The notes beneath the pieces are model-generated. The model searched no databases. It saw only the letters and a program-made list of their open reading frames with translations, and was not told the DNA's origin. From Eledone cirrhosa (lineage: Eukaryota): a stretch of 64,000 nucleotides of DNA. Made by a program: the position numbers and the translations under genes. Within the stretch, counting starts at the first letter, position 1; each line of letters opens with the position of its first letter. The DNA lies in NCBI GenBank assembly GCA_964016885.1, contig OZ024752.1, positions 27,094,001 to 27,158,000 of the forward strand, in the 5' to 3' direction. This document shows positions 12,898 to 60,332 of the stretch, piece after piece.

Positions 12898-13063
12898 GAA
12901 AAAGTATGACCCCGACGGCAGAGCTCAAGACAGAAATAGCCGTCGAAACGGCCCGAGCTCTTCCGTCGGGGTCATATTTTTCCTATTTCTCACTCTATTA
13001 CTCTAAGTATTGAGTACTCTGGTGCGTTATGGTCCATCTGGTTCCTTACCACAATTCCTTTGT
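12898..13063 (+). mobile_element. Mini fold-back element (family F) containing the 3' half of a hammerhead
   Basis: Hairpin 12898-12982 plus an 80-bp tail; GTC-GAAA-CGG...CCG-TC-GGGGTCA. Homologs at 59241-59418 and 60362-60483, all in (TA)n. Confidence 0.7.
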
Positions 13064-14509
13064 TATATATATATATATATATATATATATATATATAATA
13101 AGTTGACAAGACTAGCATGGGTTTCACTGCTACTACCGGTTGCATCTCAGCGCACACAATAGATAATGTTATGTAAAATCCCAGACTATACATATATATA
13201 TATTGATATATCATATAAATATATGTATATATATACTTACACACACACACACACACACACACACACACACACACACACACACACACACACACACACACAC
13301 ACACACACACACACATATATATATATATATATGTGTGTGTGTGTGTGTATATATATATGTATATATATATACGTGTGTATCTGTGTGTCTATTTTCTCTT
13401 CTCTTATCGCTTAAAGCAACATAAAAAATATATTTCAGTATTTATGAAATAAAAACACTATTGATAGGAAAAAAGATAAGACGAAGACAACCTCAGTAAA
13501 TAACATGAACCAATAAAATTACAATAACAATGTTAGGTGATTAAATTCAATTTCATATTGTTTACTTGTGTGTTTGAATGTATGATTGTCAGATTCCTCT
13601 CAACATGTCTATAAATACATACATATATGTATGCATGTATGTATGTATGTATGTATGTATGTATGTATGTATGTATGTATATATATATATATATATATAT
13701 ATATATATATATATATATATATATAAATGAAAAGTATAGAAATTGTTGTAGCGAGAAGCTCACAGTATTCCATAACATACGTGCATATGTATGTGTATAT
13801 ATGTGTGTGCGTATATATATAAATATGTATATATATATATATGTGTGAGTGTGTGTGTGTGAGTACGTATGGATACTTACTTGTACGTATCAACTGTGCT
13901 AGAGCAGGAAATAACATTTTTATTTTATATATATACATATATATACGTATACACACACATACACACACGCACACGCACACACACACACACACACACACAC
14001 ACACACACACACACACACACACACACACACACACACACACACACACACACACGCACACGCACACACACACACACACACACACACACACACACACACATAC
14101 ACACACATATAGTAAGTAAGTTAATTTTATAATTTTCTTATTTTACGTCTCTCATATATATATATATATATATATATATATATATATATAAGGAAAAATT
14201 CGCAGTTCTTGTGCTTTTTAAAAGTAGAAGTGAGATGGAGCTTTTTTTATCATTTTGTAAAAAAAACCTTACTTTCTAATATATATATATATATATATAT
14301 ATATATATATATATATAGAGAGAGAGAGAGAGAGAGAGAGAGAGAGAGAGGGAGGGGAGAGAGAAAGAGAGCTACTTAGAAAGATAGATAGATAGATAGA
14401 TAAATAGTATGTTGTTTATGGATATATATATATATATATATATATATATATAGTTTTGCGAGGTTTTTTATATGAAATCGTGTTTTTTATATGAAATCGT
14501 GCGTTTTAT

Positions 14510-15661
14510 ATGAAATTGTTATGTAGACGATATCAATATAGTTATAAGAGCACTAACAAATTTGATTTAGAACGTAGCACGATGGAAAGCATCCAGCAGA
14601 GAGCTGATTCCATACACCAGAGTATAACTGTAACTATCGACTTCCCTTCCAAACACCCTAACAATAGACTACCTGTATTAGACACAGAACTCTGGATTAA
14701 CACTATAGACGAGAGAGCCCAAATTCTCCACTCACACTATGCTAAACCCATGGCCTCCAAATACCTGATACTCAAAAACTCAGCAGTGTCCAGTAGTGCT
14801 AAGTTTAATATTCTGATCGCAGATTTGGTACGAGTGATGAAGAATGTGTCCCGCATGTGCGACCCAACAGAAATGGAAAGACAAATTCAACACTTCATCA
14901 ACCGCATGCAGTTCTCTGGCTACAACCAAAGAGACAGAGTCAGAGTATACGAAGGAGCCATGGAAAAGTATAAGACCCTCATAGAACTGGACATGAAAGG
15001 AATTTGCCCATTATACAGGAGCAAATCATGGAATAGCTTAGAAAGGGCTAGACATAAGATAGGGAAAGCCACCTCATGGTACGACAACCAGAGATATCAG
15101 AGTGTCATGTTTGTGGACGCCACCCCTGGAGGGAAATTAGCTAACCAGTGTAGAAAGGCCCTGAGAAAGACCCACTTAAAAATAAAGGTGGTAGAAAAGC
15201 CAGGAACCACCATAAAATCCCTGATCAACAAAACCTACCCTTTTAAGAAAACCCACTGTACCAATAGGAAATGTATCATATGTAAGGTGAACCCCCGGAT
15301 AAACTGTAAAACTAGAAACGTAGTCTATAGCATAAGATGTACAGAGGGTACTTGCAGAAACATGACAACAACATACATAGGTGAGACAGCTCGTAGCATA
15401 GGTGAAAGGATAGACCAACACTGGGGTGAACTAAAAGGACGAAAAAACGGGTCAGTACTATACGAACATGCTAGACAACAACATGACGGTAACATAGACA
15501 ACATAGAAATTAGAATAATATCTAAACATAGAAATGACCCAGCAGATAGGCAAATCAGAGAGGCCAGTGAAATAGAAATTAGAAGACCAAAGCTAAACAG
15601 AAAGAATGAATGGAATAACAACAACACCCAAACAAACAACACTGACCTAAGAGAAGTATAA
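14510..15661 (+). pseudogene. PLE RT C-terminus, Cys-rich linker and GIY-YIG endonuclease (truncated upstream copy)
   Basis: LPVLD, HYAKPMAS, C.NRKCIIC....NC, NVVYSIRC...YIGETAR..GER..QH, RQIREA, LNRKNEW. Confidence 0.9.
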
Positions 15662-15896
15662 ATAAGTAAATAAAATAAGATAAATAAATAAATAAATACA
15701 TACACAAGCACAATAACAACAAGCACATAAACACACACTAGTCACCCATCACACAGCAAACATAACACTATACACACACGCAAACGCATGCGCAAAGAAG
15801 ACGAAATAAAATAAACAAACAAGCAAATAAATAAATAAATATATAGACAGACTGAATAAAAATGGCCTAGACATACAACACAACAGGAGGAAAATA

Positions 15897-15960
15897 TAAC
15901 ACCACTGACGATGTTGCAGATGTGCAACGAAAGATTTATGATAAACTATATATATGTGTT
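15897..15960 (+). ncRNA. Hammerhead-like motif in the family B pLTR (second copy at 19984-20048)
   Basis: CUGACGA-U-GUUGCA-GAUG-UGCAAC-GAAA-GAUUUAUGAUAAAC-UA. Stem I is weak or interrupted by a TA run. Confidence 0.5.
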
Positions 15961-16120
15961 TGTGTCTATATTGTATCTGCATTATTTTTGACCGTCAGTC
16001 AGTCAATGGTAACATTGAGGACCGAGTAAGTTAGATTACCGATATAAAAGACAGCGAGAAGCGAAAACCAACCAAACAGTGAGTGTGTTCTGTTATTAAT
16101 TCTGGAAATATTACACAAAT

Positions 16121-57672: not shown

Positions 57673-59008
57673 GTAAGTTGACTTTGTATATGGGTCTACA
57701 CACACACACACACATACCACATACACAAATATATATAAGTATATATATATATATATAAATATATATATATATATATATACACACACACACACACACACAC
57801 ACACATATATATATATATATATATATATATATATATATATATATATATATATATATATACATATAAAGTGACAATAAGAATTGCAGGTTTTTTGTAAACT
57901 TTATTACATATTACAATTTATTTCCATATCGATCAGCTCAGGTGTGATCATGGGATCGGATTCCGACACTTAATCGACACTTCTTCAGATATGAGAGTTT
58001 AAACGGTAAAAATCACCCTGTCCACACAGTAAAATGATCGTCATATATATATATATTTATATATATATATATGCATATATATATATATATATATACATGC
58101 AGTCATACACATATTCACCATATATATATATATATATATATATATATACATTTATAAATACACACATGCATACATACACATATACACCATACTTTTGCGT
58201 AAAACTGGTCAATCATAAGAACCATCTGATAACGTTAAAGAAGAGAAACTTTAATGAGTTGCTGATTTTTTGTTTTTATTAAATATTATTCTGGTAACGT
58301 TTTGATGTCACCAAAGTAGATGAATTGACCAGAGGATTGATATTAAGTACTTTTTGTTAAAAATATCGTTATGGTGTGTCTAAAAGATAAAATCAAAGAG
58401 CGCACAAGAAGACACGCATTTGGCAGTTCTACCCCCACTGAAGGACGCCCAACTAATGGAGTCCCAGGGCAAATTCCCTATCCACCTCGCTATAAATCTG
58501 GTCCTACACTACGGTGCATAGGCTGATAACCAATACAAAAGTAAGACGTGTAGAGGTTTTAATCGAAACTTGCTTCTCACACGTCTATGTTTCCAATAAA
58601 TTTGTTTTCGTACTTTTAATTATATATTATTTAATTATGTGTGTTTATGCATATTCATTTAATTATTATGTGTAATTAAAAAATAATTTTAATTCACCTC
58701 AGTATATTGTATGATGAATTTACTCTTTCGTTCAGTTGTCATGTAACTCTATATACTGCACATGATTTTGTAATGACTATCAAACATATTTTGTACCGGA
58801 ATTGACCGTGGAGGCAACAATAGAAATTATCATTAACTTTATATTATTAATTATTGTTATCATTCTGTGTCTACCACCACCACCCCCTAGCCCATCAAAG
58901 CCCTGTGGAAATTCTTCTTCTTCTTCTTCTTCTTCTTCTTCTTCTTCTTCTTCTTCTTCTTCTTCTTCTTCTCCCCCCCCCCCTGCCAAAAATAGAAACC
59001 ATTATTAC

Positions 59009-59172
59009 GGTGGATTGGCATTATCGGTAGAGTTACGACCCTTGCCATTCTGAGTTCGAATCCTGCCGAGGTTAACTTTGCCTTTCATCCTTACGGGGTC
59101 GATAAAATACAGTTCCAGTAATCTACTGGGTAATTGCTGGCCTTGTGCCAATAGTAGAAACAATTATTATTA
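59009..59172 (+). mobile_element. Deu/Nin SINE with tRNA-like head
   Basis: Box A-like TGGCATTATCGG, box B GTTCGAATCC, the core, and an (ATT)n tail. Confidence 0.8.
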
Positions 59173-59240
59173 TCATTGTTATTATTATTGTTATCGTTTT
59201 CGGTATTTTCATTATATATATATATATATATGTATATATA

Positions 59241-59418
59241 GGAAAAAGTATGACCCCGACGGCAGAGCTCAAGCCGTATCGACGGCTATAGGCGTCGAAA
59301 CGGCTTGAGCTCTGCCGTCGGGGTCATACTTTTTCCTATTTCCCACTCTACTATCCTAAGTATTGAGTACTCTGGTGCGTTATGGTCCATCTGGTTCCTT
59401 ACCACACTTCCTTTGTTA
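59241..59418 (+). mobile_element. Mini fold-back element family F
   Basis: 96-bp near-perfect palindrome centred on GACGGC-TATA-GGCGTC, plus an 80-bp tail shared with 12983-13063. Confidence 0.75.
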
Positions 59419-59468
59419 TATATATATATATATATATATATATATATATATATATATATATATATATA

Positions 59469-60332
59469 TACATTATGAAGAGAGAAGAAACATTTAGATA
59501 TAATTAGTAATAAAATGTATCATACCTAAACTGCTCCTAAATTCCTCGACTACGTAGTTTCGTGGCATAAACAAAAACAATATATCATAAAGATATAGAG
59601 TCCTTGCGAGGTCTGCCGACTTATCAAGAGGATACCTCATTTTACTAGTCTCAAGAACGCGTCTACACGACGTGAGAAAGAATCCCAAAAGGCGGAGGGG
59701 GAGATAGTCACGCGATATAACGGTCGAGAAACAGAGCTAAGCCTCTTATAACCCCGAAGAAAATACTACGGAGGCGGAGGGGGTATTTATATCGAGGCCG
59801 TAGAAGAGGTGGTGAAGAAGGCGAGAAGTATGAGTAATGGAAGCTTTCCAGCTGTCCCCACACTTCAAAGATTGCTCGACCAGAGGGAGTTATTAACAAT
59901 ACTGTTTCTCGACCGTTATATCGCGTGACTATCTCCCCCTCCGCCTTTTGGGATTCTTTCTCACGTCGTGTAGACGCGTTCTTGAGACTAGTAAAATGAG
60001 GTATCCTCTTGATAAGTCGGCAGACCTCGCAAGGACTCTATATCTTTATGATATATTGTTTTTGTTTATGCCACGAAACTACGTAGTCGAGGAATTTAGG
60101 AGCAGTTTAGGTATGATACATTTTATTACTAATTATATCTAAATGTTTCTTCTCTCTTCATAATGTATTTTTAACTCTGATACTGGTTCAGTCTAGTTCA
60201 ACTGAATTGGTCTGTCCCAGTCATTCATTGAGCAACATCGGTGAAGTTGGCACCCTTAACTCACAGTTGGGTGCGGATGCATTCATGTATATATGTGTGT
60301 GTCCGCATGTATCTGTGTGTTTCTAAATATAT
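59469..60332. mobile_element. 591-bp retrozyme-like family, inverted two-arm insertion (HHRs at 59543-59632 minus and 60004-60093 plus)
   Basis: Minus arm about 59897 to 59469 and plus arm 59902-60332, both matching the unit at 62986-63576; (TA)n flanks. Confidence 0.82.

Follow-up and report, generated by a model that had tools for sequence, protein, structure and literature searches.

Penelope-like insertions with two unequal 3' ends at (TA)n tracts in a 64,000-nt window of Eledone cirrhosa

In a 64,000-nt stretch of DNA from Eledone cirrhosa (the window, to which the whole analysis was confined and whose positions serve as coordinates), insertions that we assign from their motifs to Penelope-like elements (PLEs) and related non-coding elements often carry two 3' ends. 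In such an insertion the left arm is antisense and the right arm sense; both run into a (TA)n tract, and they stop at different points of the element. This architecture is real and already known. We add longer tails, minis, non-nested and abutting arms and a tail hairpin, which make an open mechanistic question testable. Our preferred reading, to which we give a probability of roughly 0.6, is that both strands of the (TA)n tract are cut, that cDNA synthesis is primed by each 3' end, at either of two sites inside the element RNA, and that the two cDNAs are joined head to head.

Two unequal 3' ends at (TA)n tracts

The window has 33% G+C and is rich in (TA)n and (CA)n tracts. An earlier note on this DNA had claimed that both junctions of about eight insertions are element 3' ends in opposite orientation at (TA)n; self-comparison and reading of the sequence confirmed this layout, antisense left and sense right, in 8/8 intervals. 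Sense orientation was assigned from the open reading frame (ORF) and the hammerhead ribozyme (HHR). Two further insertions, 60363-60483 and 5184-7074, bring the total to ten. In the list, the short end is the stop point nearer to the HHR, the long end the one further downstream, and the tail motif is GAG(T/C)(A/G)C(T/C).

5184..7074: family E, two-ended inverted insertion; 40-nt tail at right; no intact HHR
12898..13063: family C mini; antisense 12898-12931 (short end), sense 12932-13063 (long end); arms nested; tail motif 13012
14451..20229: Neptune-like autonomous PLE with partial tandem; sense 14518-20229 (short end)
14451-14483: antisense tail arm of the preceding insertion, 33 nt, long end; stops 12 nt short of the short site
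21430..21623: mini; antisense 21430-21491 (short end), sense 21494-21623 (long end); tail motif 21577; palindrome with 2-3 nt loop directly ahead of the HHR core (21496)
21685..24514: family A, a Hydra-clade PLE; antisense 21685-21802 (long end), 5'-truncated sense arm 21803-24514 (short end); HHR 24409-24472; ORF fragment 21805-22995
24541..26139: family B, non-coding HHR element; antisense 24541-24916 (short end) nested in sense arm (long end; 24917-25420 given to it by assumption); HHR 25944-26012 and 24579-24647 (-); tail motif 26077
41437..50696: Hydra-clade PLE; antisense partial tandem 41437-46684 (short end), sense 46681-50696 (long end); open 714-aa frame 43442-45586; three HHRs; tail motif 50653 and 45735 (-)
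59241..59416: family C mini; antisense 59241-59287 (short end), sense 59288-59416 (long end); palindromic centre; tail motif 59365
59470..60332: family D non-coding tandem, retrozyme-like; antisense 59470-59896 (short end, unit 2), sense 59902-60332 (long end, unit 1)
60363..60483: 121-bp family C mini, absent from the earlier note; antisense 60363-60402, sense tail arm 60403-60483

All ten pair one short with one long end, and all ten show an inverted 5'-truncated copy with a tail at one end. The two stop points had been put about 45-165 nt apart, and we measured 45-167 nt (12898, 80; 14451, 45; 21429, 68; 21685, 88; 24541, 91; 41445, 72; 59241, 80; 59469, 167 nt; each ± a few nt owing to TA ambiguity). 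Here 21429, 41445 and 59469 are the earlier note's starts for 21430, 41437 and 59470; the second of these, the sixth insertion, is corrected to about 41437. Short ends lie 15-194 nt past the HHR cut. A target duplication in (TA)n is indistinguishable from the tract.

The end positions are not random, contrary to one possibility raised beforehand: the short end recurs between separate copies in five families (2489/24514, 9378/24541, 63654/59470, 12898/59241 within 1-3 nt, and 5184/12868). Recurrence of the long end is demonstrated in one family (13063, 59416, 60483). The eight intervals represent seven families, as 12898 and 59241 belong to one; the inversion points of these two differ, so they are separate events. 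The architecture recurs in all eight and the two additional insertions, but some insertions show one 3' end only: the HHR-bearing 3419-3977, 9216-9378 and 62765-63656, and also 12314-12476 and 12549-12868. A short-word search found no inverted tails 5' of single-ended copies. Two-ended insertions thus make up 9/12 of the resolved HHR-type insertions, with 7359, 20450 and one running off the window left out. The copies used for comparison are as follows.

1..2489 (+): second family A copy, short end as at 24514; other end outside the window
3419..3977 (-): single-ended HHR monomer-plus, 482-nt unit, between TA tracts; 5' end is the HHR cleavage site
9216..9378 (+): single-ended family B copy between two TA tracts; same short site
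62765..63656 (+): partial dimer of family D with a single end, at the same short site; tandem reference for 59470; two HHRs at a spacing of 591 nt; lacks any ORF of 150 aa

The 5' end of 3419-3977 at the cleavage site suggests that cleaved RNA served as template in vivo.

Arm geometry, tail hairpin and a proposed priming model

Copying of one strand folded back on itself requires that one arm be contained in the other. In three of the ten insertions each arm holds sequence that the other lacks. At 21685 the 88-nt tail is exclusive to the left arm and the ORF to the right one, with a 30-nt overlap between them. At 59470 one arm corresponds to 62801-63232 and the other to 63230-63654, two successive stretches of the tandem of which one is inverted; they overlap by 3 nt and have a 5-nt insert. 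The arms of 60363 map to family-reference positions 6-38 and 55-129 and have no common sequence. Arms are nested at 12898, 21430, 24541, 59241 and 5184. On the assumption of one RNA, the downstream arm ends no more than 15 nt from the upstream priming site in 3/10 insertions (0.7-0.8 expected; P=0.021-0.024), as a 3-nt overlap, a 7-nt gap and a 12-nt gap; within 35 nt the count is 4/10, with P=0.04 or 0.10 depending on the null. The 59470 insertion is one event, since its arms share 265/265 bases and three alleles missing from the copy at 62765. At 41437 a 4-nt microhomology marks the inversion point, and the sense arm matches the upstream tandem unit at 997/997 positions and differs from the downstream unit by 3 substitutions and 3 indels. 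These three informative differences lend modest support to two primers having sat in different units of one tandem RNA. Non-nested and abutting arms favour twin priming over the published self-priming, and arm geometry is what separates a two-primer model from it.

Priming at AT-rich microhomology had also been proposed. We scored 17 junctions, of which 7 were excluded as repeat copies of a site or as lying outside the finding. At the 10 independent sites, whose continuation is known, the overlap between element and TA tract was 0, 1, 2, 3, 3, 4, 4, 2, 3 and 2 nt, averaging 2.4 nt, whereas break points placed at random in these regions average 0.98 nt (P=0.002). It reached at least 2 nt at 8/10 sites, no single site being significant; adding two outside sites gave P=5e-6. 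The overlap at 59241 was scored 0 automatically in an interrupted TA tract and 3 by eye, and the conservative 0 was retained. The excess thus bears out the proposal in part. It fits primer pairing but also endonuclease cleavage at TA, and 0-4 nt cannot alone fix the start sites.

A better candidate for this is a hairpin in the tail, at fixed distance. The motif GAG(T/C)(A/G)C(T/C) stands 22-30 nt past the short end in 5/7 families (shuffle P 0.0006-0.0024 each). Its complement (A/G)CTC occurs 6-20 nt upstream of it at 7/8 tail sites and at 0/14 unrelated sites (26 sites in the window, 4 of them mirror readings). The 41437 family pairs GCTC with GAGC, the other families ACTC with GAGT; this compensatory change in a kept complementary strand points to an RNA hairpin. 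In a MAFFT alignment of 7 tails the 3' motif is in register and the 5' strand of the hairpin is out of register. By eye, GCTC...GAGCACT follows the 3' end or wraps round it in 3/6 published Hydra consensi, as far as these were available (Hydra-2_Amil, Hydra-2_Ajap and the start of Hydra-1_Ajap), and Hydra-1_Crog has a variant; the motif thereby has backing from beyond the window. The available consensi of Hydra-1_Amil and Hydra-1_Obim, both of which end early, show no motif after the HHR by eye. The 41437 element has a second copy of the motif (45599-45614) placed after the long end and ahead of the ORF start, within 15 nt that match the family B tail exactly but in the opposite orientation.

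Insertion would then most likely proceed by target-primed reverse transcription with two primers, as follows. A GIY-YIG endonuclease would cut both strands of the (TA)n tract, as the in vitro data on PAc suggest, and the reverse transcriptase (RT) would extend each 3'-OH from an internal site of the element RNA downstream of the hammerhead, with two primers per event. One start would be at the fixed short site, which single-ended copies would use too, the other at the long site, 40-167 nt beyond it. The register would be set by pairing of a few TA bases with the RNA. In Hydra-type families the enzyme is probably positioned by the conserved hairpin that lies between these sites. Finally, both antisense cDNAs would be joined at their 3' ends through microhomology, a palindrome or a few added bases. 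Where the downstream-primed arm stalled at the upstream primer, abutting arms would result; where it ran through that primer, or where a second RNA was used, the arms would overlap.

Several observations weigh against this reading. The evidence is one window with 10 cases. Arms overlap by 49-1132 nt in 6/10 insertions, which fold-back explains as well (the centre was given to one arm by assumption in two of the six), and two of these are near-perfect palindromes. Among the abutting cases only 59470 is individually unlikely, and with the 35-nt window and the resampled null the abutment test is not significant (4/10, P=0.10). TA overlap is 0 nt at one site and 1 nt at another, and an endonuclease that cuts an intermediate at TA would yield such overlap too. 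The tail motif was found post hoc and is absent from 2/7 families (family D and the Neptune-like element); whole tails fold only modestly better than shuffles (z -3.6 to +0.9 for 10 tails and one other segment). Finally, initiation by PAc is reported, in the available text of PMC11167929, as non-homologous to the target and with an equal start site on both strands. The twin priming put forward in the earlier note is in part supported: the non-nested arms, the abutting arms and the excess of TA overlap are on its side, and for the overlapping arms, at least 49 nt in 6/10, fold-back fits equally.

The chief alternative is that a single primed strand, either cDNA or the antisense RNA of the Arkhipova 2013 proposal (Discussion of PMC3846280), folds over at a palindrome and serves as its own template. 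It draws on the palindromic centres at 21430 and 59241 and on the five insertions with nested arms, and may explain this subset. As a general account we consider it unlikely, for the contained arm that it predicts is contradicted at 21685, 59470 and 60363, and a palindromic join could also arise by annealing of two identical cDNA ends. Less probable still is that one cDNA is made and that an endonuclease (EN) then cuts an intermediate of the DNA at a site resembling TA, giving the second end and the tail; Craig 2021 (PMC8557442) suggested such 'EN-mediated resolution'. Such cleavage would give both TA overlap and fixed end points; the tail motif is near-palindromic and could be a double-stranded DNA site, and the D. 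virilis EN is reported to need tail DNA (as cited in PMC11167929). However, resolution offers no source for a tail found only in the inverted arm (21685, 60363), the PAc data as available in PMC11167929 place the tail between two RT start sites, and the compensatory change in the hairpin speaks for RNA.

We give very little weight to an assembly or chimeric-read artefact. Inverted repeats beside long microsatellites are hard to assemble, and since the arms are identical over 265/265 nt in 59470 and 997/997 nt in part of 41437, divergence cannot clear these two. Yet arms do differ at 5/32 positions in 12898, 3/62 in 21430 and 2/47 in 59241, by 3 substitutions and 1 indel in 376 nt in 24541 and by 3 and 3 in 3936 nt in 41437. 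Mirror symmetry breaks off at TA tracts, the ends match those of single copies in 5 families, and Penelope-13_HM is listed with the same layout in the supplement of PMC8557442, as far as available. It is just as improbable that one family inserted twice, independently, into a single TA tract, leaving its copies head to head. Different families do share tracts at 21624-21684, 24515-24542 and 59417-59470, but no TA tract lies between the arms, the arms carry common private alleles, and one short end is always paired with one long end.

A bolder version of two-primer integration, which we find rather doubtful, is that twin priming is the normal, programmed route of Hydra-type PLEs. A dimeric RT-endonuclease would dock on the tail hairpin and start cDNAs 22-30 nt upstream of the GAG(T/C)(A/G)C(T/C) strand and 43-64 nt downstream of it, one for each end of the (TA)n break, and some 120 nt in cis, made up of the tail and half a hammerhead, would be enough for mobilisation. 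If true, programmed twin priming alone would explain inverted pseudo-long terminal repeats (pLTRs) and the tail on one side only, together with retrozyme insertions and minis below 200 bp. With the hairpin, the in vitro assay that already exists has a definite cis-element as a target for mutation. There is also a practical side: short TA-flanked hairpins are liable to mis-annotation as miniature inverted-repeat transposable elements (MITEs) or microRNA precursors, and weak Rfam microRNA matches at 59245-59332 and 12903-12978 were among the matches listed.

Element identity, hammerheads and neighbouring repeats

To judge from motifs, on which the clade names rest, the elements are probably EN+ PLEs, two of them Hydra-clade and one Neptune-like, with non-autonomous HHR-bearing derivatives. 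RT and EN motifs were seen in the translations of the coding frames. A Pfam scan gave no family above cut-off in 7/7 frames (RVT_1 below cut-off for 7441-8907, nothing for the other 6), and a solved-structure search with two frames gave no meaningful match. Of 8000 candidates scored against the 714-aa frame, 1522 were relatives, most of them unnamed; PF01541 (GIY-YIG) is found in one. All of the motifs RWK, DKT, CxCX5C, CxxC and CxH, as PMC8557442 defines the Hydra clade in its available text, are found in this frame (43442-45586), and the EN-side motifs CxCX5C, CxxC and CxH in the truncated 21805-22995 frame; both elements sit in (TA)n.

Partial tandems of the pLTR type are present in three insertions: 14518-16146 repeats 18601-20233, 45688-46684 repeats in 41437-42351, and 62765-63065 repeats 63356-63656. 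Since Rfam matches were dominated by microRNA families hitting microsatellites, with no hammerhead among those listed (150 of 282), HHRs were located by our own pattern scans, which found 13 full HHRs in the window against 2 at equal score over 20 block shuffles. The HHR, downstream of which the earlier note placed the ends, is complete in 4/8 named insertions (21685, 24541, 41445, 59469). Two others, 14451 and 21429, have the core and stem II but a truncated or imperfect stem I, while 12898 and 59241 retain no more than the 3' half; a strict half-site scan flagged 59241 alone, and 12898 was recognised by alignment to it. Full motifs in four and a core or half in the other four fit the type I HHR expected in a pLTR. 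The family D HHRs (60009, 59627 (-), 62908, 63499) have a U3:A8 core instead of C3:G8 and a long stem II. Family D alone has the layout of a non-LTR retrozyme, a non-coding tandem with a complete type I HHR in each unit; the minis carry part of one HHR.

The ORF of the 14451 element is broken by a frameshift and a stop. Its motifs (DKSG, a CX4CxxC linker, candidate C/C/H/H residues) were compared with the Neptune definition of DKG, a CX2-5CxxC linker and a CCHH-type EN; Nematis has the same linker. The best named match, an Octopus vulgaris RT-domain protein (61% identity), makes a cephalopod host likely. The N-terminal part of the ORF includes a long asparagine-rich stretch (16860-17350) that resembles N-rich inserts of A. 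vaga Penelopes. The HHR core is found in two copies, and the tail sequence is also present internally.

15905..15948 (+): HHR core with stem II in the internal pLTR, stem I imperfect; second copy at 19991
14463..14516: inversion point, where a 19-nt unit is repeated 2.8 times

The latter repeat suggests stutter of the tail arm, as if a stalled RT had re-copied a stretch of template. This reiteration is of note since PLE RTs are the sister group of telomerase.

Family E (5184-7074, 12314-12476, 12549-12868) is a TA-targeting non-coding repeat with internal tandem pieces and without an intact HHR, so that the link of 5184..7074 to PLEs would rest on its architecture. Both arms of this copy contain about 400 nt of microsatellite-rich upstream sequence. 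At 12114-12305 a 112-nt palindrome has an 80-nt one-sided extension into (TA)n, with its right side joined to a family E copy; it is possibly another two-ended mini, though no HHR was found. We rejected 9648-10104, which has equal inverted arms of about 85 nt around an internal TA tract and no HHR, and looks like a MITE with an internal microsatellite. Other PLE-type sequences are a GC-rich RT fragment between TA tracts, truncated at both ends (7359-8877), and a TA-flanked segment with a Hydra-style HHR (21242) at its end (20450-21345).

The remaining repeats are of other kinds. A broken minus-strand RT region of long interspersed element type (about 27000-30900) holds a 145-nt fold-back palindrome (29494-29638) beside a short interspersed repeat. 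A dispersed family of 50-130 nt repeats (26762, 29640, 39999, 59046, 61000, 61232) looks like short interspersed elements and may resemble those of octopus. A non-LTR retrotransposon lies at 31916-37148 (+); judged by motifs, its first ORF is probably gag-like, and putative endonuclease and RT parts are spread over several frames.

Comparison with known systems

The earlier note was right that inverted segments and short tails are known for Penelope; the 'two 3' ends' are the published inverted pLTR plus tail, viewed from the target side. PMC8969392 lists inverted pLTRs and short extensions as known. PMC8557442 describes a 5'-truncated copy in inverted orientation, a tail of 30-40 bp that frequently sits at one end, and (TA)n targets for Hydra and Naiad, and states the mechanism of tandem and inverted PLE insertions and their microsatellite preference as open. 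PMC3846280 has the same inverted layout and proposes self-priming on an antisense template. No twin-priming model for PLEs was found in the literature available to us; Arkhipova 2006, Evgen'ev and Arkhipova 2005 and Pyatkov 2004 may hold earlier proposals.

The EN+ PLEs of these two papers (Penelope, A. vaga Pen2a, Naiad) have the same inverted 5'-truncated copy at the 5' side with flanking inverted repeats, the same tail at one end, partial tandems, and AT-rich or (TA)n targets. Their tails measure 30-40 bp, against 40-167 nt here, and unlike them the pattern in the window extends to minis of 121-194 bp and to inverted arms that consist of the tail alone. That one pattern runs through autonomous, non-coding tandem and sub-200-bp elements, as had been suggested, is borne out. 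With the Hydra clade of PMC8557442 our elements have common motifs, a canonical HHR and the (TA)n target, and Penelope-13_HM has the inverted 5' copy. The published Hydra units are below 3 kb, whereas those here are longer because of long, microsatellite-filled 3' untranslated regions. The main text of that paper, as available, mentions neither a tail hairpin nor two classes of ends (no matches for hairpin, stem-loop or twin).

In vitro, PAc (Poseidon, Anolis; PMC11167929) nicks and extends both strands of an AT-rich target. Its RT starts at two internal sites past the HHR, one on either side of the tail; HHR cleavage was unnecessary in vitro. Unlike PAc, the insertions described here show a small TA overlap and strict pairing of short with long ends. 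The available main text of that study draws no link to inverted insertions, and its supplementary figures may bear on the point. Non-LTR retrozymes (PMC7229834; bioRxiv 10.64898/2026.07.22.740005) are likewise non-coding tandems with a type I HHR and are proposed to be PLE-derived; family D (591-nt unit) and 3419-3977 (482-nt unit) are retrozyme-like. A term search of the available text of both sources did not find inverted two-ended insertions or tails.

Twin priming of L1 was reportedly described by Ostertag and Kazazian in 2001. As pictured in PMC12016303, cDNAs in opposite orientation likewise start from the two target strands and meet with a small gap or overlap. In L1 one strand is primed at poly(A) and the other at varied internal sites, whereas here both sites are internal and fixed, and no poly(A) was seen at the junctions. 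The rate for L1 is 18-22% of insertions, as against 9/12 two-ended among the resolved HHR-type insertions in the window. The process would work like twin priming, yet the insertions are not L1.

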